Shown piece by piece: positions 2-48,844 of a stretch of 64,000 nucleotides of DNA. The notes under the pieces are model-generated. The model worked only from the letters and a program-made list of their open reading frames with translations, had not been told where the DNA came from and did no database searches. The DNA comes from Planctomycetota bacterium (GTDB lineage: Bacteria; Planctomycetota; PLA2; JAEUHO01), in contig CBDCTJ010000007.1 of assembly GCA_965222115.1 (NCBI GenBank), positions 96,001 to 160,000 of the forward strand, in the 5' to 3' direction. Each line of letters opens with the position of its first letter. The stretch's first letter is position 1. Both the position numbers and the translations under genes were made by a program.

Positions 2-1093
2 CTGGCGGGCATCTTGGGCTTCGCACAACTGTTGTTGGCGCGTCCGCGCGAGCAGTGGTCCAGCGACGACATTGAGAAGATCGAAGAGAACGCGAAGCGC
101 TGCCAAACGATCGTTGAGAATCTCCTCGCGTTTGCACGACAGAGTCGCATGCAAAAGCGCATGGCAAGCCTCAACGATGTCATCGAATCGGTCCTCAACC
201 TCAATGAGTACCAGTTCCGCATGGACAATGTACAGATTGAGCGCGACTTCGATCCCGATGTGCCGTTGTTCCCCATCGACGTCAATCGTTGGCAACAAGT
301 ATTTATCAACCTGGCGTCCAATGCGCACCAGGCACTCATTCGCACCGAGCAGTCCGCCCGGGTGATACACCTCATTACCCGGCACGAAAACGGCAAAGTT
401 GTGGTTCTGGTTCGCGATAACGGGCCCGGGATTCCGTTGGAAGCGCAGTCCAAGATCTTTGAGCCGTTTTACACCACCAAAGAAAAGGGAACGGGACTCG
501 GACTCGGTATCTGTTTCGGCATTGTGGAAGAGCACGGTGGTCACATTGCGCTCGATCCCCATTGGACCGAAGGCGCCGGCTTTCGCATTGAGGTGCCCGT
601 CGTGGGCGGCGTCTCCCATCGCATCGAGGCACCCAACGTGCCGGAACGCATCTCCACGGACTCGGGGGTGGGCAAGCGCGTCTTGGTCGTTGACGACGAT
701 CCCTATATCTGTGATGTGGTTACGCGCGCACTTGAAAACCACCACTACGACGTAACGGTGGCCAACGATGGACGCACCGCGCTGGACGCGATGCTGGAAA
801 CACCCTTTGACGTCTTGCTCACAGACGTACGCATGCCGGGCGAACTGGATGGGATCGATCTCTACGATCGCCTGGTGGCCGACAGACCCGTGTTTCGAAA
901 CCGCATCATCTTCATGACAGGCAATCTGCTTGACGACCGCACGATGGAACGCCTGGGGGAACTCCCGGTGCGCTGCATCGAAAAGCCGTTCGACATTCAT
1001 CGACTCGCGAAAACGGTAAACGAGGTGTTGGTGCAGAGCCGTGCCGCTGACGAGCGCGGGCAGAACTCGCGCGTCCCACTGCACGGCACCTAG
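2..1093 (+). CDS. Hybrid sensor histidine kinase/response regulator (5'-truncated by window edge)
   Basis: Frame is open from position 2 (LAGILGFAQLL, HisKA helix). HATPase motifs QVFINLASNA, DNGPGI, FEPFYTTK, GTGLGL; C-terminal receiver VLVVDDD...DVRMPG...KPF. Confidence 0.9.
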   Translation: MAGILGFAQLLLARPREQWSSDDIEKIEENAKRCQTIVENLLAFARQSRMQKRMASLNDVIESVLNLNEYQFRMDNVQIERDFDPDVPLFPIDVNRWQQVFINLASNAHQALIRTEQSARVIHLITRHENGKVVVLVRDNGPGIPLEAQSKIFEPFYTTKEKGTGLGLGICFGIVEEHGGHIALDPHWTEGAGFRIEVPVVGGVSHRIEAPNVPERISTDSGVGKRVLVVDDDPYICDVVTRALENHHYDVTVANDGRTALDAMLETPFDVLLTDVRMPGELDGIDLYDRLVADRPVFRNRIIFMTGNLLDDRTMERLGELPVRCIEKPFDIHRLAKTVNEVLVQSRAADERGQNSRVPLHGT

Positions 1094-27881: not shown

Positions 27882-28279
27882 TCCAAAACCTCCGTACGAC
27901 GACAGGCTCTGCTTCGTTGAGATGGCCGTCCGTGAGATGGCAGGTCACCGTTGGACATGTCGTGCCCCACGGTTGCCCAGCATCGGGTGGCGCGGTCGTC
28001 GCGTACGCACTCAATTATCTCAGAAGTTGAGCGTTCGCCTCCGATCCTCTTCAATCGGCCCAAATACGTCATAAATGCCGAAAAATGGGGCTTCTACGCA
28101 CATCCGGGGTGCCGATTTCGTCTGTTGATCGTCACTGTTTTGACCGATTCGACCTTGACGATCTACCCCGCACAGGCGTAAACCCGGGTCGGGATAAGGG
28201 CGGGGCAGCTGTTACCTCGAGGTCACTCGTGCGTAGTCCTTCATGGCCCCGCCTTGCGGGGTCGGTGGAGGGCCGACCC

Positions 28280-29290
28280 GTGACTGCCGCGAACTCGCGA
28301 CATGCGAACGACCAACAAGCCTACGAACAGCGAACCAACAACACGCCAACCGCGGGTTGTGCGAATCCCCCGCTCGCATCGAGTTCCACCTGCGAACGCC
28401 ATGTAAGCGGCCCGCTGCTCGGGGCCGCACTTCAAGTCGTACAACCCACGCTGACCCCCGCACGAAATCCCGATGCCATACGTGACGCCACAACCGACAG
28501 TTGGGGACGCACAGCCCACCGACATGATCCGTTGTGGGCGTGTGCACGTGCTGGGGATCACGATGCGTTTTGCCAACTGGTCGACACGTTCCTGGAACGC
28601 CTGATTGCACAAGCGCAACGGCTGCTTCGGCGAACCCATGAAGACCCGGCCGACATCATTCAGGACGCCTTGTTGTCGGCATGGGAGCGACGCTGCACCA
28701 TCACGTCGTTTCCTCACTTGCGACGTTGGCTGTTCCTTGTTGTGCGACGACATGCCATATCTCGCATTCGAAGGCGAAAGCGCGCGGGCCATGGATTCGT
28801 TTCGCTCCATCGAGACACCGACGACGACTCCGACCTTCGCGAAGGTCGCACCCGGCAGTTGCGTGATCCATATGCACCCACACCATCGGCGGGGAATCTC
28901 AGTCGCGCCCAAGTGACAAAGTCCATGTTGCGTGCGATGCAGTCGTGTGCACGCTCTCTGTCGCCCAATGATCTCTCCGCCATCGAGCTTTACTATCTGC
29001 ACAACTTTCGCATACGCGACATCGCTGAGCTGTTGGGCATCTCCGTAACCGCAGTCAAGATGCGACTCACGCGCGCGCGTGCACGCTTACGCCACTCGCT
29101 TAACCAATCTGCCGAAGACGCCATCGAGGCCATAGAAGAGGAAACACTCCCCGCGCGCAACACGCCACGTGCCTGGGACGAACCGCGCGCTACATCACCC
29201 GGATGGGCCACAACCGTTCGCGAGTGGATGACGGCCTATGAACGGAGTCGTCCAAAGTGCACGCCAAACACACTGAGGAGGCCGTCATGA
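28280..29290 (+). CDS. ECF-type RNA polymerase sigma factor
   Basis: GD..AF..LV, DIIQDALL.AW, WLF.V.R (region 2); L.Y...RDIAELLGISVTAVKMRLTRAR (region 4). GTG 28280 follows a GGAGGG RBS. Confidence 0.85.
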   Translation: MTAANSRHANDQQAYEQRTNNTPTAGCANPPLASSSTCERHVSGPLLGAALQVVQPTLTPARNPDAIRDATTDSWGRTAHRHDPLWACARAGDHDAFCQLVDTFLERLIAQAQRLLRRTHEDPADIIQDALLSAWERRCTITSFPHLRRWLFLVVRRHAISRIRRRKRAGHGFVSLHRDTDDDSDLREGRTRQLRDPYAPTPSAGNLSRAQVTKSMLRAMQSCARSLSPNDLSAIELYYLHNFRIRDIAELLGISVTAVKMRLTRARARLRHSLNQSAEDAIEAIEEETLPARNTPRAWDEPRATSPGWATTVREWMTAYERSRPKCTPNTLRRPS

Positions 29291-31925: not shown

Positions 31926-32003
31926 GGGGGTGTAGCTCAGTTGGTTTAGAGCGCCGGCCTGTCAAGCCGGAGGTCGCGGGTTCGAGTCCCGTCACTCCCG
32001 CCA
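31926..32003 (+). tRNA. tRNA-Asp (anticodon GTC)
   Basis: GGGGGTGTAGCTCAGTTGGTTTAGAGCGCCGGCCTGTCAAGCCGGAGGTCGCGGGTTCGAGTCCCGTCACTCCCGCCA. Confidence 0.97.
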
Positions 32004-35276: not shown

Positions 35277-38117
35277 TCATGCGAGTATCCTCCGCAACGC
35301 CGCCTCAGCTTCGCCCAATGACAGGACTTCTCTTCGCATCGACAAATCGAACGAAGAATGTGCTTTGATGGCATCTAGTGCACGCTCATACATTGTTGAT
35401 GCTTGCGTCCCCGACAACGCGAGCAAGGCTGCTGACTGTACGTCCAACAACCACATAGGTCCTACGAATGCGCCAGTGCCTGCCAAAATGTCATGTACGT
35501 CGTACGGTGAAAACCCCACGACACACGCAAGAGCACCTGCTAACGCCGACGCGCGAGCTTGTCCAAGAAACGCCCAGATGCTCTGCGCGTCACTTGAGAG
35601 TTGAAGGCAAGCCTCCCGCTCACCCCCTCTCCACGCCACGGCCGCTTCCACAAGGAAGATCATTGCAGCTTGATTGACACGACCAAGTGTCTTTGTTGCG
35701 GACACCAACCCTGTATCAACCTTCAAGTTCTCCATCATTCTATAGCCGGATGCTCGGTAAATGTACTCGGCTCGAGCTTGCCGAAACACGTGCCCCGCAA
35801 GCTTCGCTTCGCGTAGCGCAAGCGTTGAAACGTGTCGCGCTCGCTCATGTTCACCTGCATCTAACCTCGCGTCGGCTTCATTAAGCAGACATGAAAGTCT
35901 AGCACTGGGCGTGAGCGCGAACTCCGCCGCTCGTTCGTGAAAGACAGCGGCCTCTCGTGGCCGTCCTTGTCGATATTCGTACCAGCCTCGTCCCTCCTGA
36001 TACTTACATTGCCCTCCTCGCACCGAATCGGCCACACGCTCACACGCACTGAGCACGTATTCTTGTTGTTTGAGTGGCAAACTCCATGCGGCCATCAACA
36101 AGATCGACATCCAAGGCAATTGAAGTACTGGATCTTCGGGAAGAGTATCGGGATCAACCAACGCACAAGCATGATGCCCTCGCGCTTGAAGTGCGAGCTT
36201 AGCCGAGCGACACATGCGGTAGAGATACTCCAACTCTCGACCCCCTGCGGCTCCAGATTCCAACTCGGCCAAGACGGGTTCAAATCGATTGCTAGAGGTT
36301 TCCGCAAGCGCACAAAGAAAGAGGCGCCGTAGCGACTCGTAGCGACTCGTAGCATCAGCCCCCCGCCTTGACCGCACGAGGGCCAACGCGAGGTCCATTG
36401 CCTCTCGTGTTCTACCTTGGACTATTGCATCATCGACATCCTCCGGATCCGGCTCGGCCGATGACACGGGGGAGCAGACCGGCTCCCTCGCTCGAATCAC
36501 TTGATTCACTGACGGTAGCACCTCGACAAATTCTCCACGATTGCATAGCCAACCTGAGAGCTTCCAAATGGTCATCTCCGCAACGACCGCTCGTGGATTG
36601 CCACGAGTGCTCCTGTACAGAAGCGTCGATGCTCGCTTTCGATGAGAAGTCCAACGATCATTCCCAGACAGCGAGTCATGAATGTCAAGTCTGCTCATTG
36701 CCTTGAGCGAAACCGACGCACTACACTTAAGAGGCGTGCGCGAGGCGTACAAAAGGAGCGAGTGAGGGAGAGATTCGCGTAGCGCCGACAGCGCCTGCGG
36801 AGGGACGCATTCCGCGTCATCAATCACAACTACATCACTGCACCCAATCCGTGGTGGTACGATCGAACGTCCAGACGAACAGTCGAGAACGTTGCCCGTT
36901 AGCTCTACACAGGTTCGACCGCAAGATCGAAGCTCACGGACGAGTCTCTGGAGTAGCCGCGACTTTCCGACACCGGATGGGCCAAGAACTTCCACATCAC
37001 CACAGCTATTCAGTATCTTGAGTGCCGCATCATGCGCGCTGTCCGCACTTGCATGGTGGAGACAGAATGCGGAGGACGCTTCCATTGTAGGTAACAACTG
37101 AGCTATGACATCGCGTGCGGAATTTGGTCTATTTCTTGGATCACCAGCCATGAGGTCCATTAACAACTCGCGCCCAGCTCGCGGGGTGTCCTTGTACTTG
37201 TTCGGAGCGAGATGAGGTGCCCCGGACTCTCGACGAGAAAGGAGTCCATCAAGTTCGACGGGGCGGTGCGGAATTTCTCCCGTAAGCGCTTCATAGAGCA
37301 TCACGCCGATTGAATAGAGATCTGAAGACACTGAGGGAGGATCTCCCCTTAATCGCTCAGGAGACATGTACGCGATGGTACCGGCGCACTCCAGGATAGT
37401 GCCGGAAGCCGCACAAACACCTTCGCCCGTGACGAGACCAAAATCGATCAACCGAACGTCATCGCCATCAACCAATACATTCGATGGCTTGATGTCTCCA
37501 TGCGCAATCCCACACGCATGCATATGGGAAACCGCGCAGAGTACGCGGAGGATTAGGTAGGACGCCCTGTCCCAGTTGCATCGCCCCTTGAAAGCAGGAA
37601 ACGGCTGCCCGTCCACGTAGTCAGTCACAATGCAGGGATACCCCAATGCGTCGCAGAGATCCCTGTGGCTTACAATGAGTGCCGAATGTACGCGTCGCAA
37701 CGCCGATGACTCGCGTCGAGCCGCCCATTGCGCGGGGTCATCAAGCCCCGTGAGAATTTTTAGCGCGACAAGTTCTCCACTCAACGTGTCGTAGCTCTTG
37801 AACACATCACCAAACGCGCCTGATCCGAGATGCCTCTTGACCTGATACCGCTCGTCAATTGTCAGACCAAGAAAAGTCGAAGGACTGGGGCGATCGTCGC
37901 GTACTAGAATTGCGGTCTTCGATCGAAGACCTGAATGCGCGGTCGGCCTCATGAAATCATCAAGAGACACGGCATGCTTGATCAATCGCAACGCGCGCGC
38001 TAGAAGCTCGGGCGCGTGAGAGAGACAGTTCGACAAGAACGCTTCTCGATGCGGAGGTTCAAGCTCAAGCGCATCGACAACAGCCTCTTCAAGTAGATTG
38101 TCAGTGGAGCTACTCAC
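35277..38117 (-). CDS. Ser/Thr protein kinase + P-loop ATPase (STAND-like) + TPR-like repeats
   Basis: LGSGAFGDV, VALK, HGDIKPSN, DFG, GT..YMSPE, DLYS.G; Walker A GPSGVGKS and Walker B VVVIDD; helical repeats at the C-terminus; N-terminal 'ALEL....R.AFL..C' domain typical of ECF-linked kinases. Confidence 0.9.
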   Translation of the reverse strand: MSSSTDNLLEEAVVDALELEPPHREAFLSNCLSHAPELLARALRLIKHAVSLDDFMRPTAHSGLRSKTAILVRDDRPSPSTFLGLTIDERYQVKRHLGSGAFGDVFKSYDTLSGELVALKILTGLDDPAQWAARRESSALRRVHSALIVSHRDLCDALGYPCIVTDYVDGQPFPAFKGRCNWDRASYLILRVLCAVSHMHACGIAHGDIKPSNVLVDGDDVRLIDFGLVTGEGVCAASGTILECAGTIAYMSPERLRGDPPSVSSDLYSIGVMLYEALTGEIPHRPVELDGLLSRRESGAPHLAPNKYKDTPRAGRELLMDLMAGDPRNRPNSARDVIAQLLPTMEASSAFCLHHASADSAHDAALKILNSCGDVEVLGPSGVGKSRLLQRLVRELRSCGRTCVELTGNVLDCSSGRSIVPPRIGCSDVVVIDDAECVPPQALSALRESLPHSLLLYASRTPLKCSASVSLKAMSRLDIHDSLSGNDRWTSHRKRASTLLYRSTRGNPRAVVAEMTIWKLSGWLCNRGEFVEVLPSVNQVIRAREPVCSPVSSAEPDPEDVDDAIVQGRTREAMDLALALVRSRRGADATSRYESLRRLFLCALAETSSNRFEPVLAELESGAAGGRELEYLYRMCRSAKLALQARGHHACALVDPDTLPEDPVLQLPWMSILLMAAWSLPLKQQEYVLSACERVADSVRGGQCKYQEGRGWYEYRQGRPREAAVFHERAAEFALTPSARLSCLLNEADARLDAGEHERARHVSTLALREAKLAGHVFRQARAEYIYRASGYRMMENLKVDTGLVSATKTLGRVNQAAMIFLVEAAVAWRGGEREACLQLSSDAQSIWAFLGQARASALAGALACVVGFSPYDVHDILAGTGAFVGPMWLLDVQSAALLALSGTQASTMYERALDAIKAHSSFDLSMRREVLSLGEAEAALRRILA

Positions 38118-38701
38118 TCAAGCGAGTCCTTGATTCTCAACTTTGCAAATTTGATCTTTCGATAGACACTTCGCTTGCTGATTCCCACCAACGGTCCGAT
38201 CGCCTCAGGGTCGAGCCCCAACCAATAGTGCAATCGAATCATGCTACACATTTGTGGATCATCCTGCGCGAGAGCGCGAAGCGCCGTGCCAAGCCGGTCG
38301 AGGGAACCGGAAGACTTCTCAAGTTTGTCTATGTGCTCATCCAACAATCCTAGCTCAGCCACGTCGGCCAGTCGTTCTCCTGAAGTCCTCTCACGGCCCC
38401 TTCGCGCGGCCCTGGCTCTAGCGCGATCAATCAACATTCGTTCCATTGCGAGGGCTGCCCAATTCATAAAATGTTTGCGACTGCTCCATGGCGAGTCCCT
38501 TCGAATGACTCGAGCGTACAACTCGTGCACGAGATCCGTCGGCTCCAAAGACGAGTCCCTCCCCTTTCGAAGCCGGACGGCGGAGGCCATGGCCCTGAGG
38601 CGTGAGTAGAGAGCACGAAAGACCTCGTCTTCTGCGCCCGAGACTCCCTCTTGCATACCGTGAAGGAGTTCGGTGATCGATGAATCGGAATATGTAGTCA
38701 C
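38114..38701 (-). CDS. ECF sigma factor of the Ser/Thr-kinase-associated type
   Basis: ITELL....G...A..E.F..LY.RLR..A, L.PT.LVHE.Y, W.SR.HF...AA.AM.R.LID.AR; ATGA overlap with the kinase; GGAGG RBS before GTG 38701. Confidence 0.9.
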   Translation of the reverse strand: MTTYSDSSITELLHGMQEGVSGAEDEVFRALYSRLRAMASAVRLRKGRDSSLEPTDLVHELYARVIRRDSPWSSRKHFMNWAALAMERMLIDRARARAARRGRERTSGERLADVAELGLLDEHIDKLEKSSGSLDRLGTALRALAQDDPQMCSMIRLHYWLGLDPEAIGPLVGISKRSVYRKIKFAKLRIKDSLE

Positions 38702-38966
38702 TGCTAGCGAACCTCCACGCTGAGACACTTACGATACGGAGTGAGGCGCCGTCTGTGACAGAATTGGATGACATTACGGAGTATATCGAGGCCCCTCCTC
38801 TCCCCACTGGGTGCTTGAGACGCCTCAAAATCGTCTTGGCACTCAATTTCGTGCGCGCCGTAGTCATTGATGTGAGGCGAACAATCGCCTCGTGCCGCGC
38901 TCAATCCCTTTGAGCTTGAGCGGCTTTACGAACACGATGCACGAGTACGTGCTGAATTGGAGACAC

Positions 38967-39167
38967 ATGGGCTGGTTATCGAAAGTCAAACGCATTGCCA
39001 AGCGGCACACCAAGAAGGCGTACGATGCTGGAAAGCGAACTGTAAGGAAACATGGGCACAAGATCCTCAAGAAGGCGGTAGTCGCCGGAACAACCGCTGC
39101 TGCAGGGGTCTTTGGTGGCCCCGTAGCGGGAGCTGCGGCAGGAAAAGTAGCAAAGGAGATTGTTTGA
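38967..39167 (+). CDS. 66-aa cationic amphipathic peptide (cecropin-like layout)
   Basis: GGAG RBS. MGWLSKVKRIAKRHTKKAYDAGKRTVRKHGHKILKKAVVAGTTAAAGVFGGPVAGAAAGKVAKEIV has 16 K/R versus 2 D/E and a Gly/Ala hydrophobic C-terminal segment. Confidence 0.75.
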   Translation: MGWLSKVKRIAKRHTKKAYDAGKRTVRKHGHKILKKAVVAGTTAAAGVFGGPVAGAAAGKVAKEIV

Positions 39168-39487
39168 TGACGACACTTACGAATGAAGAAGCAGACACGA
39201 TCATGAGCGAAATCGGGATGCGGCGCGCAAATGAAATCACGGGCCGACTGATCGATGACGACAAGATTGACGACGACCTTGCGGCCGCGTTGGTTGATGC
39301 CACGCAAGACCAACGTCTAGAAGTAGCAGATATCATGCTCGACATTCTCGGCCTCAATGCGATCTTCTCAAGCGCGATCAAGAGCGGTGACTCGCTGGAT
39401 CCAGATGAAGTGGACGAACTCCGGCAGTACGTCGGGGAACTCGAACGCGACTCGTCTGATATCATTGCGGCTCTAGTGAGTTCTTAG
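39167..39487 (+). CDS. 106-aa very acidic helical protein, translationally coupled to the cationic peptide
   Basis: AAGGAG RBS inside the peptide gene, TGATG overlap; about 26 D/E versus 8 K/R by hand count. Confidence 0.78.
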   Translation: MTTLTNEEADTIMSEIGMRRANEITGRLIDDDKIDDDLAAALVDATQDQRLEVADIMLDILGLNAIFSSAIKSGDSLDPDEVDELRQYVGELERDSSDIIAALVSS

Positions 39488-39509
39488 TTCGTGAAGTCTC
39501 ACAACTAAG

Positions 39510-39587
39510 AGACGCTCACATCATGAGCGTCTTCGCCTACAGCGCGCGGGTCGCGTGTCGCGGACTCCTTGATGCGACACGCGCCCC
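39510..39587 (+). terminator. Two consecutive stem-loops after the peptide/acidic-protein pair
   Basis: AGACGCTCA-N5-TGAGCGTCT and CGCGTGTCGC-N12-GCGACACGCG. Confidence 0.5.
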
Positions 39588-39750
39588 ATTCCGTGGGCTC
39601 CTATTCCGCGCGGATTCTTCGTTCAGTTCCATCTGAATTACGCGCCTTGTACTGTGCCCCTCCTACTGGGCCCAAGCGGACGCCTAGGATTAAGTCAAAG
39701 ACTTAACAATCGCCCAATTGGGTACACGCCACCTGATTCGTAGGAAGACT

Positions 39751-40641
39751 ATGACCAATCTAAGATCCGGTAGCCAAGGACGAGATGTGCGGCGCTTGCA
39801 GGAGCGGCTTGTGCAAGCAGAACTCCTGAATGGAGAAGTAGACGGAGTGTTCGGCGCAGCGACTGAATCCGCCGTACGGTCATTCCAGATGCAAAACGGC
39901 CTGACCGTCGACGGAACTGTAGGACCAAAAACAACGGCGTGGCTCGATGTTGTCGTTTCGGAATCGACAGTACTTGAAGAGGACAATCGGTTGCTGGCGA
40001 AACTAAGAGAGGTAGTGACGACCACCGCGCCGAGGCCAGCTCCTGCGCCCGTTGCAAGGGGTGATGCTCCGATGATCGGTCTAGAAAGCCGTGCTGCTGC
40101 GGTTGTTCTCGCGGCAACTTCTGAGTGGAATCAGATCGTGCATGAGCCGAAGGGAAATGGGTGGGAACGTATCGACGAGTACATTCGTGGACCAGAGGGA
40201 ATCGATTGGGGCTGGGAGAGTAGATATGTTGCAAACAGGCAATTTAAGTGGTGCGGCGCATTCGCTGCTTTCTGCTTTCACGCAGCAGGACTCAAACACG
40301 AGATTCGCAAGCGCGTCATGCCTTCCACGTATCGCATTCACAAGTGGGCGGCCGGTAGCACACGCATGATTCCACACCGAGACGTGTTGCCGGGCGACAT
40401 CGTGCTAGTCGGGCCAAATCAGGGCAAGATTTGGGGCAACCACATCACGATATGCAAATCCGTTGAATTGGCCACGGAATCCATCACCACGCTTGAGGGC
40501 AACGCAAAGGGCATGGGACCGGACGGTGCGTTCTACGAAGGAGTCATTTCGCGTGCGAGGCCCTTTGAGACTCCGAGCCTTCCTTCTCGCAAGTACCGAA
40601 TCAAGCACGTTGTGCGTCCTCTCCCCAGCGACTATGTGTAG
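39751..40641 (+). CDS. Peptidoglycan-binding domain + CHAP (Cys/His amidase/peptidase) cell-wall hydrolase
   Basis: PG_binding_1 LR.GS.G.DV..LQ..L...VDG.FG..T..AV..FQ...GL.VDG.VGP.T; catalytic WCGAF, PGDIV, NHITI, TLEGN; no signal peptide. Confidence 0.88.
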   Translation: MTNLRSGSQGRDVRRLQERLVQAELLNGEVDGVFGAATESAVRSFQMQNGLTVDGTVGPKTTAWLDVVVSESTVLEEDNRLLAKLREVVTTTAPRPAPAPVARGDAPMIGLESRAAAVVLAATSEWNQIVHEPKGNGWERIDEYIRGPEGIDWGWESRYVANRQFKWCGAFAAFCFHAAGLKHEIRKRVMPSTYRIHKWAAGSTRMIPHRDVLPGDIVLVGPNQGKIWGNHITICKSVELATESITTLEGNAKGMGPDGAFYEGVISRARPFETPSLPSRKYRIKHVVRPLPSDYV

Positions 40642-41523
40642 TTATGCATCGGGGGATATATACGAACTAGATATGTTCACCGAAACGAGTACGACCCGAA
40701 CTTGAATCGCAATCAAGCGTTCCAGAAATGCGAGCGCTGGAGATTCCAGCGATTGCCTTGCCGTGATGCGGCCCCCGAAAGGGCCAACGCGTCGACTCCA
40801 AATGATTTCGTCGTAAGGTGGGTCTCAAGTAGCACCCACTTTGGACGCCATAGAACTGTCCTCGGATCATGGAGAATGATTGGTATGTCTCGAGCAGCGA
40901 CACGCCTAGTCTTGGCTCTTGCTTCCGATTGCGGCGAGGAGAATCGGGTCGAATTGGACCTGCCCCCTACCCAATGCCTCCACTCATTTTCGAAGAACCA
41001 CTCTCAGCTGTCCGTTCCATACTTGTGATTCCGTTTCCTCAGGCGCACAGATGGAGGTCGATCTCAAGGAGCGGAACGGGATCGTGACTCCGAGTACAGG
41101 CCGCCGGGTGGGAACAACACCGTGCAGGGTCTAGTTGGAGGCATCGGACGTTGTACGGAGGATCGGCATTACGGTCATGTTGGCAATGCCGCACCACTTC
41201 AACTTCAATGCGGGCATCAGCGACGAGTTGAAGAAGTTCAACGCGGGAGGTGAGTACAAATTGTCACAGCGCCCCATCAACGTGAACCGAATCGAATAGT
41301 AGGCTGAACCGCAAGGCTCGAGATTCAAGCATGCTGATCAGCCAAGTCTGCTGCATGTTTCGTTCGAACACTCGTACGCCTGGATCGCTGAGAGAATCGC
41401 ACCACCCTCATAGTGTATTGCAACGAGATGCAGTGACGTGGAACGGCAACAGCCGATTCACGACATAGACGTGCTTCCCCGAAACCGCAACCTGCATCAA
41501 GTTCGACACTTGCGGCTTGCCCA

Positions 41524-41705
41524 CACCGGCCTGCCAAACCGGAGGTCGCAAGTTTGAGCATGTTCTGAGCTTGTCGAATGGGTTTCGTCACTCCCGTCAT
41601 TCCCCCTCCGATAGCAACTGCGTCGCCCGGCCACCACGCTACCTCCCCGCGACCGGGTGAGAGGATAGGCCGAAATGTTATTGGAGGCGGTAAGGGAGTG
41701 GGTCA
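41524..41705 (+). repeat. Decayed tRNA-Asp 3' half (with 24 intervening nt) plus ~105 bp homologous to the sequence downstream of tRNA-Asp
   Basis: CACCGGCCTGCCAAACCGGAGGTCGCAAGTTTGAG...CGTCACTCCCGTCA aligns with 31952-32003; ACTGCGTCGC.CGGCCACCACGCT...TCCCCGCGACCGGGTG...GGATAGGCCG...TGGAGGC.GTAAGGG aligns with about 32020-32110. Confidence 0.88.
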
Positions 41706-41810
41706 ACATGGATCGTTGGTTCGATCTAAACTTGGGGTCGCGCTGCGCGAGGGGCGCAAAATCGTCGCGATTCGACGGCCGTTGACCTTGGCTGCGCAAC
41801 ACAAGGTGAT

Positions 41811-43572: not shown

Positions 43573-46122
43573 CTACTTTGCCTGAAGCTGAATCACAACC
43601 TCTGCAGGCTCTCCGCTAAGGAGTCGAACGTCTTGAGGTGGAATCGTCTCGTAGCCAGGGATAGGCCCTAGCACGAGCCTATAGTTGCCCGGCTTAGCCA
43701 TCGTTATCCCAAGGGAACTATCCCCGTAGTAGATCTCGCGAAGTTGCTCAACCGTAGTGCCATTTCGCTGGAGCTCCGCACGCCAATGCATGTTCCAGGG
43801 AATGTTCGTCGTGCCTTGCATCAGACGCACGCGGAGCGTCGCGGTAGGCCTCACTTCGAGCGTCGTTTCGACTCGTGACTCATGTAGGGAGATTCGCTCG
43901 GGACCACCAAAATGGGTGTATCCCAACGATCGAATCTCGTAGTCGCCAAAGGGTACGCGAACTCTGAACGGCTGCGTAGGCGCCTTGCGTTGAATCGCCT
44001 TCCACCCCCTACCACTGTCGATCGCCCGAAACCCCAACGTCGAAATGGGAGCGTCTTCGTCGCCCGAGGTATGAACATCGAGCGTTGCAGGGGGAGGAAT
44101 CGCAATGCGAATGAACGAATCGGTTGGCGCACTCATGTCAATACTCGTGGCGTACCCGAAGTGAGGGAAGCTCAACCCATAAGGCCCTCTAGGTAGCGAA
44201 CCTGCATTGAACTTAATGACGCGAGGCTCATCGGGATCTGAAGTGAGCCCCTTACCTAGAGACAGGGACCGGAGAACGTGAGGCCGCCCCATCCCCGGTG
44301 CAGGGGTTGTACCGTCCAATCGAGATAATGACCGTGAATCAGAGTTGGTCAATCGATAAGGGAAGTGTGGCGTCACATGCATCACGATGTGATCAATGGA
44401 CCAATCTTGGGGAACCACCAATTCGCCTGCAACGATGGCGTGCTCGCGTTTCCCAGGAGGTGAATATCTCACTTGAACATCGGTCGATTCACCAGGCGCT
44501 ATGAGAAATCGAGCTTCACCGATATTGACGGAACCGCCGATGTCCCCCGTTAGATGTAAGCGTGCCAAAAACGAACCCGGAGTCAAGCCTTCGATGTTCA
44601 CCGTGCCCGAAGACGAAATGGTCCGCCTCGCTGTCACGTGTCGTGTAGATTCCGGTGGACCATAGAGGTAGAGCGTGGCAGGCCATGGGAGCGTATCGCC
44701 AACGAGCTCAATCGACACCGTACCTGCGCGATGCAGTTCGACCGTTTGCTGATGCCCGTCAAAGACCTTTATCTGAACGTTGCTCCACGCGTAGCCCGGG
44801 GCGCCTACGCGGTAGTCAACCTCTTCCATACCAACTTCGAGGGTGGTGATTCGGTGCTCAATAGGATTCATAACGAGGTCCCCCAGTTTGGCTCCAGCGC
44901 GAGGCGTTCGCTCGTTGACTTCGTCGTTTGACTGACCAGTCAGACTAATCATGTGGACTTCGGGGATCAACAACCCCGTCTCGGCGTCCACAACACGAAG
45001 CCTCAGATTGGGCACAAGGCGCGCATGGATATCGACTTGATGACTGCCATGTAGCTCCAAGACTTCATCGGGCGACATGATCTGAGCAAGCGCCGATCCA
45101 ACCTCGATGTACGAAAACATGAGCTGTGAGTGAGACTTACGGACATCGCACGTATAGCGTCCTTGATCGATCTTCGCTGTAATGAGTTCTTCGGTGTTTC
45201 CGCCCATGGACACCAAATGGAGTTTCCCTAAGTCGGATGAAACGGAGTCACCCCGCATGTCCACCACAGACACGACGCCCTGCACGCGCGAAACCGCTGC
45301 TCGCGGCTTGACGTGAGTGGCGATGTCATGCGCAGGCCCGGACGCTCCCTCGTCGGCTTCCTTCCCCGACTTGGTTGGCCTCACGCCAACGAGCACGACG
45401 GGAGACGATGTAACCTCACTTGCGATTGCGGGCAATGTCACGGCATCTTGCTCGGAACGTGCCATGACAACATCCTGGCTCTTCGGTTGCAACACGCGAT
45501 GAACAGCCCACCCTGCTGCCAATAGCGAAACTAGAGCCGTGGCCACGATCACGACCGGAGAGATCGAAAGAGCCACTCCTGGTGTGCCTCGAGCAATACC
45601 ATTCATCGACACGAATGCCAGAGGCCACGCGCGTCCTTCGCGATCTTCCAACTCTCGTCGAAGATCGGCCATGGCACGCTTCAAGCGAGTCTTGATGGTC
45701 TCAACGGGTGCGTTCAATCGTGCGGCAATATGGCGTGGCGCAAGATCCTCGAAAAATCGAAGTTCAATCACCTCGCGCTTGGCGGGCGACAGCTTGCAAA
45801 TCGCCGAGACGACGGACTGGGCTTGTTCGATTCGTTCCATACGCAAGTCGGGCTGCTCTTCCACCGCACCGATACGACTCGACTTCTCACGTGCGCTTCG
45901 CCTTGCATCAGATCGCCACGACTTACGCACAACGTTGCGCATGACTTGCGAGAGCCAGGCACGCGTGGTGGAACCCCGGCGAGGCGGCGACTTGAGTGCT
46001 ACGAGCAGTGTCTCTTGGAGCGCGTCATCCGCGGCCGCCGCGTCGTGAACCAATGCACGGGCAAGACGTTTCAACGGCTCGATATGCTTGACGATCTCTG
46101 CGGGTGTAGTGAGGGGTGGCAT
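43573..46122 (-). CDS. ECF sigma factor fused to a TM helix and a large beta-rich (carboxypeptidase-regulatory-like/Ig-like) extension
   Basis: L..LAR.L....AADDALQET, AWL..V.RN; region 4 LRFFE...IA.RL..PVETIKTRLKRA; TM at about aa 185-208; repeated beta-sandwich motifs (LRVVDAETG, GAPGYA, GLTPG). Confidence 0.85.
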   Translation of the reverse strand: MPPLTTPAEIVKHIEPLKRLARALVHDAAAADDALQETLLVALKSPPRRGSTTRAWLSQVMRNVVRKSWRSDARRSAREKSSRIGAVEEQPDLRMERIEQAQSVVSAICKLSPAKREVIELRFFEDLAPRHIAARLNAPVETIKTRLKRAMADLRRELEDREGRAWPLAFVSMNGIARGTPGVALSISPVVIVATALVSLLAAGWAVHRVLQPKSQDVVMARSEQDAVTLPAIASEVTSSPVVLVGVRPTKSGKEADEGASGPAHDIATHVKPRAAVSRVQGVVSVVDMRGDSVSSDLGKLHLVSMGGNTEELITAKIDQGRYTCDVRKSHSQLMFSYIEVGSALAQIMSPDEVLELHGSHQVDIHARLVPNLRLRVVDAETGLLIPEVHMISLTGQSNDEVNERTPRAGAKLGDLVMNPIEHRITTLEVGMEEVDYRVGAPGYAWSNVQIKVFDGHQQTVELHRAGTVSIELVGDTLPWPATLYLYGPPESTRHVTARRTISSSGTVNIEGLTPGSFLARLHLTGDIGGSVNIGEARFLIAPGESTDVQVRYSPPGKREHAIVAGELVVPQDWSIDHIVMHVTPHFPYRLTNSDSRSLSRLDGTTPAPGMGRPHVLRSLSLGKGLTSDPDEPRVIKFNAGSLPRGPYGLSFPHFGYATSIDMSAPTDSFIRIAIPPPATLDVHTSGDEDAPISTLGFRAIDSGRGWKAIQRKAPTQPFRVRVPFGDYEIRSLGYTHFGGPERISLHESRVETTLEVRPTATLRVRLMQGTTNIPWNMHWRAELQRNGTTVEQLREIYYGDSSLGITMAKPGNYRLVLGPIPGYETIPPQDVRLLSGEPAEVVIQLQAK

Positions 46123-46603: not shown

Positions 46604-48844
46604 GTGGAGGTGATGGGACGCATATCAACCAGCATGTGGTCCGCTTGGCTATCTACGCGTGACAATAGTGTGTTCGAGGGGCTCGTACGACCCGAGTTGC
46701 CAGCGCTCTACGACGCCGCACGTAGGACCGGGCTTGGTTCGCACGACGCGGAAGACATCGTGCAGGAAGCCCTGAGTGAGTTGGCGCGGGATCATAGCCA
46801 ACGACCGGGCCAAGTCGGCGTGGGCGCATGGTTGATGCGTTCGGTGCGCCTGAAGGCGCTGGGGCGAATTCGTTCGAAGCGGCGTCGGCGAAGGCATGAA
46901 AGGCGAAAGCCCGAGCGTGCCGCAGAACGCCAAGGCGATCGACTCGAGTTTCACGATGAGATTGAGCAAGCGTTGGAGAAGCTAGGTGCGGCGGACCGGC
47001 AAGTTCTGCTGTTCCGATTTCTGTATGACCTCGACTACCGTGAGATTAGCTACGTCTTAGGCGTCTCGGAAAACGCGTGCCGCATTCGCGTTCACCGCGC
47101 GTCCACACGAATGCGAGAGCATGTAGGTGCCCGCGCGCCAACGATGCTCGCGCTGATGCCGTTGTGTGATTTGCCCAACACTGCCAGCGTGCTCGCGACG
47201 GCAACCAAAGCAGCAGGAACTGCAGGCGGCGCATGGGCCGCGTGGACCGGAGGCGTTCTCATGGGTACGGGACTGAAAATGGCAAGCTCCGCGGCGATCG
47301 CCGCGGCCCTCACTGCAGGCGTGGTGTTGACAACAATGGATCAAGAGCAACCCGCTCTGGATCCCAACAGCGAACCAGTCATCGTGGCTGAGTCGACAAC
47401 GGAAACGGCAGAACCTAGCCTCACGGTTCGCGAACGTCAGGCGTTCGAAACGCTTAACCCGACGGAAGAGGAAATCGCTTGGCTAAAAGCTCGACTGAAA
47501 GAGGAACGTAATCGCCGAGCACAGGCGCACGTGCAACCGAGCGACTCGGGCATTGACATATTGCGACGCGCTATCGATCACGGTATGGATCCATGGCAGC
47601 TCATGGCCGACTTCGAGCGGTTTAGCAGCCACGTGCGAACGGGCGAAGGACGGCGAGAGACGTATGTGGCGTCTGGAGAAGAAACGACCAAAGTAAGTCT
47701 TGCCAAGGCCCTGAAGGAAGGCGTGTGCGTGATCGAGTTCGGGCCTGGCATTTTTGACGTGACAGGGCTGCATTACCTCAGTAGGACGAAACCGATCCAT
47801 AGTCTGGAGTTCATCGGCGCAGGAATGAACAAGACAACGCTCAACATGGCGCGTCACGAAGAGTTGCTCGTTACCGAGGAACTCAGCAACTTGCGATTCC
47901 GCGATTTGACACTGGACTACGGCACAGAATGTGAATTGCTGGACGTTCGGGATGCAACGGCCGCAATCTTGGAGCGCGTTCGGATTCGAAACTGGGGTAC
48001 AGGCGCCGGATACAGCGCAGCGATCGGTGTAGCCGGCATGGCGTACCTAGGGTGCACAGACTGTGAATTCGAACACACAGAGGGATGCGGAGGAGGATTC
48101 GCTGCAGACTTCCGGGGACCGGGTGTCGCCGTTTTCGAGCGCTGTGTGTTTCGCGACATACGCAGTACCGTACTCGGGGATCAAAACGCCAAAGGGAGCC
48201 AGGTGTTATTTAACGGCTGCACGTTTACTGACTCAGCGCTCACGGACAGTCGCATAGGCACGAGAGACGGTACATCCTCGCTTGAGATCCGCGTAAAGAG
48301 TTCGAGCGCTACCTATGGCGGTACCGAATGGACTCAGGAATATCGTCGAGAGCGCTGGGGCACACAGTTCGCCGCAGAAATTAGGGACACCACGATTGAG
48401 CCCAGTCAGAATTCGTGTACATCCGCGGATCTAGTCGCAGCGTTGCAGCTTCTTGACTTGCCAAGCAATGAAGTTGTGCACCACGTCAGCGTGATGCGGT
48501 TTATGGAGGGAGAGATTAGCGCACTCTCCCTTAACGCACACGTGTCCGGCAAGCGACAGACGAAGACGTATACCTGCCTGCTCAAGGACGGCGAGTGGAT
48601 TGTCCGTGTCAACCCAAGGGGCGGTGGGTATGGATATCATCTAGCCGATGAACACAACCCACAGGAACTGACCACCTTGTTGGCAGCGGTGCCACCGGAC
48701 TATCAAATTCGTAGCGCAGTCCTGCAAATGGTAGGTACTGCCAAAGAGCCAGTGCCTGGCCTCTATGTAAAAGATGATCACGGATCGAAAACGCTCCCCG
48801 TCATCATTCACGCAGAAACCGGCAAAGTTCTCACGCCACGCTAG
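46604..48844 (+). CDS. ECF sigma factor fused to a TM helix and a parallel beta-helix (pectin-lyase-like) domain
   Basis: AEDIVQE, WL; region 4 FRF..DLDY.EIS..LG.SE.A.R.RVHRA; TM; FGPG.F, LEFIGAG..KT, FRDLTL, FERCVF, FNGCTF beta-helix rungs. Start uncertain. Confidence 0.82.
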   Translation: MEVMGRISTSMWSAWLSTRDNSVFEGLVRPELPALYDAARRTGLGSHDAEDIVQEALSELARDHSQRPGQVGVGAWLMRSVRLKALGRIRSKRRRRRHERRKPERAAERQGDRLEFHDEIEQALEKLGAADRQVLLFRFLYDLDYREISYVLGVSENACRIRVHRASTRMREHVGARAPTMLALMPLCDLPNTASVLATATKAAGTAGGAWAAWTGGVLMGTGLKMASSAAIAAALTAGVVLTTMDQEQPALDPNSEPVIVAESTTETAEPSLTVRERQAFETLNPTEEEIAWLKARLKEERNRRAQAHVQPSDSGIDILRRAIDHGMDPWQLMADFERFSSHVRTGEGRRETYVASGEETTKVSLAKALKEGVCVIEFGPGIFDVTGLHYLSRTKPIHSLEFIGAGMNKTTLNMARHEELLVTEELSNLRFRDLTLDYGTECELLDVRDATAAILERVRIRNWGTGAGYSAAIGVAGMAYLGCTDCEFEHTEGCGGGFAADFRGPGVAVFERCVFRDIRSTVLGDQNAKGSQVLFNGCTFTDSALTDSRIGTRDGTSSLEIRVKSSSATYGGTEWTQEYRRERWGTQFAAEIRDTTIEPSQNSCTSADLVAALQLLDLPSNEVVHHVSVMRFMEGEISALSLNAHVSGKRQTKTYTCLLKDGEWIVRVNPRGGGYGYHLADEHNPQELTTLLAAVPPDYQIRSAVLQMVGTAKEPVPGLYVKDDHGSKTLPVIIHAETGKVLTPR

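Follow-up and report, generated by a model that had tools for sequence, protein, structure and literature searches.

What purpose is served by two short, oppositely charged and overlapping open reading frames (ORFs) that sit just upstream of a signal-less hydrolase gene in a planctomycete? The locus lies in a stretch of 64,000 nucleotides from a Planctomycetota bacterium (GenBank assembly GCA_965222115.1, contig CBDCTJ010000007.1, positions 96,001 to 160,000 of the forward strand), which in its full length we call the window. The first ORF encodes a polycationic peptide (P0003) and the second a strongly acidic partner (P0001). Both are real, translationally coupled genes, with conservation as the strongest support, and together they are a conserved bicistronic module. 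For its function we tentatively favor guarded lysis or release, in which a membrane-active peptide would be held inactive by its acidic partner and would gate a leaderless hydrolase, a reading to which we assign a probability of about 0.4.

The two small ORFs were read directly from the sequence of the forward strand (Table 1). They meet in the pentamer TGATG (39165-39169), where the A of the peptide stop codon doubles as the A of the partner's ATG, and each has its own ribosome binding motif. Both are concealed within longer ORFs: the peptide gene is masked by an ORF of 91 aa in the same frame (38892..39167, GTG start), and the pair also by one of 176 aa (38957..39487, TTG start) whose frame differs from that of the peptide. 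An earlier sequence-only reading of this DNA had described the concealment, the separate ribosome sites, the TGATG overlap and net charges of about +14 and -18, all of which are confirmed here. A codon log-odds score trained on 994 long ORFs from the same genome gave +0.11 per codon for the peptide and +0.27 for the partner, where real genes of such lengths average +0.18 (standard deviation 0.08-0.10). Peptide and partner are already present, with identical boundaries, in a large collection of predicted proteins, and an unrelated contig (L024) carries a homologous pair whose start positions are the same. That the pair is spurious, and that the true gene is a longer overlapping ORF or one on the minus strand, could be argued from the existence of such ORFs on both strands (those on the minus strand at 38864..39313 and 39067..39465). 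We consider this most improbable: the competing frames have negative codon scores (-0.18, -0.05 and -0.20), the protein sequences and their start sites are conserved in a contig whose GC content differs, and all seven homologues of the partner align from the same first Met.

Contig L024, recovered by a scan with the partner homologue P0010, is the sole homologous locus retrieved, and it carries the conservation argument. The peptides of the window and of L024 align without gaps over 63 residues, 26 of them identical (41%, pairwise E 2e-9). Their gapless BLOSUM62 score of 125 compares with a maximum of 61 in 3000 shuffles, and the result was likewise when the compositional halves were shuffled separately. 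The conserved positions include M1, G2, L4, S5, K6, K8, R9, A11, K12, G22, G41, G47, G50, G51 and P52. The L024 peptide is also strongly cationic (net +16), with a maximum hydrophobic moment of 0.90. Whether the two ORFs co-occur elsewhere was a question raised by the sequence-only reading, and in this one other locus they do. The same reading had conceded that homologues of the peptide might turn out to be the N-termini of longer proteins; the L024 peptide is instead a free-standing ORF behind a ribosome site of its own. Judged from the two sequences, therefore, the pairing, the gene order, the peptide start and the free-standing state of the peptide are all conserved, and the peptide does not form the N-terminal part of anything longer.

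The translated peptide starts MGWLSKVKRIAKR and ends KEIV; its frame opens MGWLSKVKRIAKRHTKK and closes GKVAKEIV. It contains 16 K+R against 2 D+E (net +14, isoelectric point 11.28) and opens directly with M-G-W-L-S-K, with neither a signal sequence nor a pro-peptide, as does its L024 homologue. The N-terminal part is amphipathic, with a predicted helix at about residues 3-36 and a maximum 18-residue helical hydrophobic moment of 0.72; when residues 2-37 were shuffled, 11 of 2000 shuffles reached this value. The tail, AVVAGTTAAAGVFGGPVAGAAAG, is a weakly hydrophobic Gly/Ala segment (best 19-residue Kyte-Doolittle mean 1.34) that holds a GGP hinge at residues 50-52 and the pattern G47xxxG51xxxG55xxxG59. 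A motif of the GxxxGxxxG type within a hydrophobic segment is the pattern of a glycine zipper. In L024 the corresponding positions are A37, G41 and G45 plus G47 and G51, and the registers of the two peptides differ. An AlphaFold2 model of the peptide, of low confidence (predicted local distance difference test, pLDDT, 57), shows helices throughout, interrupted at residues 30 and 50. Leaderless and polycationic, with an amphipathic helix, a GGP hinge and a small-residue zipper tail, the peptide is built like one that inserts into or disrupts membranes. The peptide gene also contains an imperfect direct repeat (39011-39033 and 39068-39090, 57 nt or 19 codons apart), which corresponds to a repeated KKA..AG motif (TKKAYDAGK, LKKAVVAGT) and hints at an internal duplication.

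The partner is as acidic as the peptide is basic, with 8 K+R against 26 D+E (net -18, isoelectric point 4.05), and it has no export signal sequence. An exhaustive HMMER search of 1,835,955,588 representative proteins recovered six homologues (E 6.6e-18 to 7.5e-7, identity 33-47%), and a profile search gave a seventh, P0010. The acidity first noticed in the single sequence extends to the whole family, all eight members of which are 104-112 aa long with net charges of -13 to -26. Nine positions are invariant (N22, G26, L42, A45, Q49, R50, D55, D78 and E81), and helices 1 and 2 are separated by a loop rich in D. The AlphaFold2 model, built on the eight-row alignment, is confident (pLDDT 92.2, predicted TM-score 0.77) and has helices at residues 6-25, 34-43, 47-72 and 79-105. 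Foldseek found no match to this model in the PDB at E<=0.001 and none among viral models (BFVD); the best VIA-align score (Z 8.8) was to generic helical hairpins, with no specific fold relative. We rejected the idea that the partner is an anti-sigma factor: it contains neither Cys nor His and so cannot form a zinc motif, and no sigma gene adjoins the pair in L024. The partner may be a stoichiometric neutralizer of the peptide, binding its cationic half in the cytoplasm. A complex prediction for partner and peptide was uninformative (score 0.00, mark 0.32).

The gene that follows the pair, P0002, encodes a hydrolase with a peptidoglycan-binding domain (PG_binding_1, residues 10-65, 66.5 bits) and a CHAP domain (PF05257) at about residues 160-270. 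The latter is a marginal pass (26.2 bits against a cut-off of 26, E 1.1e-5), scored when residues 110-296 were scanned alone and absent from the listing of the whole-protein scan. A Cys-containing KWCGAF motif and a weak TIGR02594 match are also present, and both halves of the protein match endolysin families of the PHROG collection, the binding domain at 6e-17 and the catalytic half at 2e-7 and 6e-7. We conclude that P0002 has no signal peptide because PG_binding_1 begins at residue 10, the frame opens only at 39694, 19 codons upstream, and no hydrophobic N-terminus is encoded. In L024 the corresponding ORF is a Peptidase_C70 protein (the papain-like AvrRpt2 family) with an SCW cysteine about 30 residues from its start; BLAST detected no homology between it and P0002. 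A scan of the window's genome for Peptidase_C70 found nothing, and one for PF05257 missed even P0002 and is hence uninformative. Between pair and hydrolase lies a stem-loop cluster, and the RNA of 39480-39620 folds with -63 kcal/mol (z -4.87, 0 of 200 shuffles as stable); the cluster is probably a terminator, an attenuator or an RNA-stabilizing element. Both loci thus have the same layout, with the pair, then 203-263 nt of strongly structured RNA, then a leaderless papain-fold enzyme. A secondary suggestion of the sequence-only reading, that the peptide assists the CHAP enzyme in the manner of a holin, is strengthened by the signal-less papain-fold hydrolase that follows the pair in both loci. 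A Pfam scan at E<=1 matched the peptide to no holin family.

Table 1. Positions and properties of the features discussed, in the window and in the homologous contig L024.
Locus	Feature	Position	Strand	Properties
Window	Peptide gene (P0003)	38967..39167	+	ATG 38967, TGA 39165-39167; 66 aa
Window	Acidic partner gene (P0001)	39167..39487	+	ATG 39167, TAG 39485-39487; 106 aa
Window	GGAG, Shine-Dalgarno-like motif	38959..38962	+	4 nt 5' of peptide ATG; spacing short
Window	AAGGAG, Shine-Dalgarno motif	39153..39158	+	Within 3' end of peptide gene, 8 nt 5' of partner ATG
Window	Stem-loop cluster	39482..39587	+	Stems 39482-39510, 39511-39531, 39548-39587; without T-run; inverted repeat I4
Window	PG_binding_1 + CHAP hydrolase (P0002)	39751..40641	+	263 nt 3' of pair; signal-less
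Window	Extracytoplasmic function (ECF)-type sigma factor	38114..38728	-	Divergent from pair, 238-nt shared upstream region; Sigma70_ECF 89.6 bits, TIGR02999 118.6 bits
Window	Ser/Thr kinase	35277..38117	-	946 aa; Pkinase 133.8 bits; P-loop NTPase, helical C-terminal half; co-oriented with sigma factor
L024	Whole metagenome contig	2577 bp		GC 0.47 (0.55 for the locus of the pair); all genes on one strand
L024	Gene 1, TPR protein	3-1040	+	C-terminal 345 aa; TPR_12 32.3 bits; TPR_MalT below cut-off
L024	Gene 2, peptide ORF	483 nt after TPR gene		63 aa, MGFLSKIKRAAKKVGRAAKKAGRAAARVTSRKLIRRAIKHGMTVGAGALGGPTAAAIVHTVVK (MGFLSKIKR...); behind ribosome site AAAGGAGG
L024	Gene 3, acidic homologue (P0006)	22 nt after peptide ORF		Behind GGAGG
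L024	Hairpin, 16 bp	3' of partner gene		RNA fold z -5.36, 0/200 shuffles as stable
L024	Gene 4, Peptidase_C70 ORF	203 nt after partner stop		Signal-less; 27 bits, cut-off 19

The presence of a leaderless wall hydrolase in the cassette makes guarded breaching of the cell envelope the most likely job of the module, and its recurrence suggests that the output is a breach through which the enzyme reaches its substrate. In the mechanism we propose, the first gene would supply a leaderless polycationic helical peptide of about 65 aa, and the second, translationally coupled, an acidic four-helix protein that would keep the peptide harmless in the cytoplasm. The pair would be the front end of a three-gene cassette made up of the pair, a strong RNA hairpin and the signal-less papain-fold hydrolase. 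Titration or breakdown of the partner would free the peptide to permeabilize a membrane, after which the leaderless hydrolase could reach the wall, with lysis or release of cell contents as the outcome. We think it unlikely that the locus is, more specifically, a phage-independent chromosomal switch for self-lysis or protein release, fired by the divergent ECF sigma factor and the Ser/Thr-kinase/STAND-like sensor and serving altruistic lysis, abortive infection or holin-type secretion.

Several observations weigh against guarded lysis or release. The cassette layout is seen in two loci only, the L024 hydrolase ORF ends after 99 aa at the end of the contig, and the two hydrolases belong to different papain-fold families, of which Peptidase_C70 is not, to our knowledge, a known wall hydrolase. 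The 203-263 nt gap with its strong hairpins separates pair and hydrolase, and phage lysis genes are usually tightly packed. The Kyte-Doolittle means of the two peptide tails (1.34 in the window, 1.38 in L024) fall below the usual transmembrane value of 1.6, the GGP hinge interrupts the segment, and the charged domain of the peptide is N-terminal, where classic holins have it at the C-terminus. The peptide has no PHROG family at E<=0.1, and the best PHROG match of the partner is to a transcriptional-regulator family (E 0.081). Scans with Pfam and NCBIfam gave only matches below cut-off for either protein, and PADLOC gave none. No phage genes were found among the ORFs scanned near the pair. Searches of phages and plasmids by tblastn found no match to peptide or partner; for the peptide this covered 50,697 phage records, with none at E<=1, in a collection whose inclusion of phage phiKT is unchecked. 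Scans of IMG/VR viral contigs with P0004, P0007, P0009 and P0001 found nothing. A look-up of RNA runs returned none that covers this DNA.

These reservations leave room for other explanations, and the hairpins between pair and hydrolase at both loci are a natural starting point, as they would also suit a stand-alone module of the toxin-antitoxin or abortive-infection type. Here the peptide would be an intracellular, membrane-depolarizing toxin, the acidic protein its direct antitoxin, and the hydrolase an unrelated or loosely linked conflict gene. The tight translational coupling, the conserved opposite charges and the very patchy distribution, with a single carrier among 401 sampled genomes of the phylum and a single one among 40 of the order, would fit. 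The gene order is toxin-first, which is less common for protein-protein toxin-antitoxin pairs, the partner has neither a DNA-binding domain nor the signature of an autoregulator, PADLOC returned no match, and a leaderless papain-fold enzyme in both loci would have to be a coincidence. Precedent does exist for soluble cytoplasmic neutralization of a glycine-zipper toxin (PMC12744356). On balance we hold this explanation to be somewhat unlikely. A non-lethal housekeeping role, which we view as unlikely, would take the peptide as a membrane tether, as a regulator, cofactor or substrate of the papain-fold enzyme (for example, processed near GGP), or as a basic polyanion binder with an acidic chaperone. 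It would account for the conservation of GGP and its flanking small residues, for the cysteine peptidase fold of both downstream enzymes and for a hydrophobic segment too weak for a classic transmembrane helix. The family is too rare for such a role, however, with eight members in 1.84 billion representatives and none in the 39 other genomes of the order; the substrate version needs cleavage before proline, which is unusual, and no nucleic-acid-binding family was matched.

The sequence-only reading had preferred an exported, leaderless, cecropin-like bacteriocin, whose electrostatically matched partner would confer immunity or act as a chaperone before export. In its favor, the peptide is leaderless, cationic and amphipathic, carries Gly2-Trp3 and has both a hinge and a tail of small residues, and the partner is acidic throughout its family. 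Leaderless bacteriocins are known from Gram-positives; the host of the window is diderm, as concluded from an Omp85/BamA homologue in its genome. The ORFs scanned at 28-58 kb include neither a transporter or C39-ABC exporter nor a gene for membrane immunity, and no Pfam cecropin or bacteriocin family matched the window or L024 peptide at E<=1. The partner is of a soluble, cytoplasmic type, and a cytoplasmic acidic protein cannot protect against a peptide that arrives from outside. Self-protection of the ExiAB type prior to secretion offers a precedent (PMC12744356). We regard an exported bacteriocin as improbable.

Peptide and partner are small unannotated families, and the partner family is very rare, with eight members in the collections searched. 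Its sole carrier among 401 sampled genomes of the phylum, and likewise among 40 from the order or class, is the window's own genome. Six-frame searches of the 401 genomes gave matches at chance level (best per-genome E 0.0016 for the peptide and 0.0044 for the partner), and the five best loci for the peptide were matches inside unrelated or off-frame ORFs. Word-index searches with either protein returned the query only, and the ESM Atlas gave no usable lead for either. At the DNA level, 38700-40700 had two matches of 31-36 nt and nothing more in 40 related genomes, and no paralogue in the window's own genome. Genome-contig scans with P0009 and P0006 and a metagenome-contig scan with P0004 found nothing. 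We did not find the module described in the literature, where no search was aimed directly at the family; that it is not in print is concluded solely from the absence of a family annotation in Pfam, NCBIfam, PHROGs and PADLOC.

Divergent from the pair lie an ECF-type sigma factor, a possible regulator of the pair, and a large kinase whose P-loop NTPase is STAND-like (AAA_22, nSTAND3 and AAA_16 at E 6e-5 to 3e-4, all below cut-offs). Phosphorylation of ECF sigma factors by a partner kinase is a described mechanism (PMC13147305). In L024 a MalT-type TPR protein stands upstream of the pair in place of sigma factor and kinase, and the upstream 1.5 kb lack a sigma gene. This protein ends in TPR/MalT-like repeats typical of STAND-type regulators; its resemblance to the kinase-NTPase protein of the window is merely architectural, because BLAST finds no similarity between the two. 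No upstream motif of at least 8 nt is shared between the window and L024. A near-perfect palindrome (GCACG-AGTA-CGTGC, 38936-38951), seen by eye just 5' of the peptide's ribosome site, could be an operator.

The non-kinase half of the 946-aa kinase, a P-loop NTPase followed by helical repeats, has three further paralogues in the window's own genome (G000:C7 198448-199458, 2873339-2874466 and 2062893-2063636). Eight of 28 other genomes of the family have relatives of it at 27-33% identity, but no clear orthologue of the C-terminal half for a comparison of synteny or insertion. Other neighbors of the pair are a weak DinB-like ORF and a lipoprotein-like ORF. Among the ORFs scanned near the pair there were no plasmid, transporter or secretion genes, the locus has no flanking repeats suggestive of a mobile element, and TssC (type VI secretion) and WXG100 proteins were not found in the window's genome, which is 90% complete. 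The roughly 1.17 kb 3' of the hydrolase gene (40642-41810) contain no convincing gene: the longest enclosed stop-to-stop frame is 128 aa, and there were no Pfam matches in the six frames tested, no tRNA and no Rfam match. GC content is 0.58-0.63 up to about 34 kb, apart from one 2-kb bin at 0.56, and drops there to 0.55-0.58, a level that persists through the rest of the window; the pair sits in this lower-GC part. There are no repeats or tRNA at the shift, and a tRNA-Asp lies at 31926-32003. Elsewhere in the window, two proteins of 849 and 746 aa (43573-46122, minus strand; 46604-48844, plus strand) combine N-terminal sigma-70 r2/r4 (ECF-like) domains with very long extensions, and a third sigma-70 r2/r4 protein of 401 aa (28085-29290, plus strand) has an N-terminal extension of about 150 aa.

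If guarded lysis or release is the correct reading, a bacterium makes a membrane disruptor resembling an antimicrobial peptide in its own cytoplasm, silences it with a dedicated acidic protein and wires it to a signal-less wall hydrolase. The module would then add a new small family to the few release systems of the holin or disruptin type that are not of phage origin, and likewise to the small membrane toxins that are neutralized by a protein. It would also offer a natural peptide-inhibitor pair, compact and genetically tractable, for studying how cationic peptides are silenced.

How does the module compare with systems that are already known? Cecropins are secreted as precursors with a signal peptide, and in the mature peptide of about 35-40 aa an amphipathic helix rich in Lys, with a Trp close to the N-terminus, is joined by a Gly-Pro hinge to a C-terminal helix rich in Ala, Val and Gly. 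The cecropin or pleurocidin layout proposed in the sequence-only reading stands in so far as the window peptide has the amphipathic helix, the Gly-Pro hinge and the small-residue tail, at most a convergent design. Membership of the family does not stand: the peptide is bacterial, about twice as long, lacks a signal or pro-peptide and is paired with an acidic protein. Neither it nor its L024 homologue matches the cecropin family (PF00272) in Pfam at E<=1, a search in which HMMER filters may drop very weak matches. Leaderless bacteriocins of the class IId type have a dedicated exporter and membrane immunity genes in their cluster. No such cluster was seen here, with no ABC transporter or similar family among the ORFs scanned at 28-58 kb and with L024 ORFs that comprise the TPR protein, the pair and the Peptidase_C70 protein. 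Nor is there support for membership of the C19orf12-like glycine-zipper proteins (PF20721), which match residues 22-61 of the window peptide (E 0.002, 18.4 bits against a cut-off of 30) and the L024 peptide not at all; the match is probably compositional.

The closest parallels are intracellular. The holin, antiholin and endolysin systems of phages (T4 T/RIII, P1 LydA/LydB) resemble the proposed module in that a small protein of the membrane and its soluble inhibitor in the cytoplasm go together with a wall hydrolase that lacks a signal, and a signal-less endolysin-like hydrolase also adjoins the pair here, 263 nt away in the window, with the Peptidase_C70 gene at 203 nt in L024. Differences are the lack of any PHROG holin or antiholin match for peptide or partner, a marginal transmembrane segment in the window peptide and the structured 263-nt gap before the hydrolase. 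T4 RIII is a cytoplasmic antiholin (PMC8385771), and a glycine zipper in the second transmembrane domain of pinholin S21-68 is involved in pinhole formation (PMC9025707). The phage phiKT disruptin gp28 (10.1101/515445) is a 56-aa cationic amphipathic peptide of a lysis cassette; it resembles the window peptide as a small, leaderless cationic peptide with a predicted amphipathic helix, made intracellularly beside lysis genes in a diderm host. The window peptide differs in its additional Gly/Ala tail with GGP, its acidic partner and a chromosomal locus without phage genes, and the two sequences do not match. In S. aureus, soluble ExiAB neutralizes the glycine-zipper toxin EsxX in the cytoplasm of the producer (PMC12744356). 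The proposed likeness is a glycine-zipper, membrane-depolarizing segment that is toxic from the cytoplasmic side and that a soluble protein encoded with it sequesters. EsxX is a large LXG protein exported by type VII secretion, whereas the window peptide has 66 aa, mostly cationic helix, and no LXG domain, and no homology to the window pair was detected. A small membrane-active protein with a protein inhibitor, beside a wall hydrolase, is thus a known kind of arrangement; what would be new in the planctomycete module is its composition and its chromosomal, phage-free setting.

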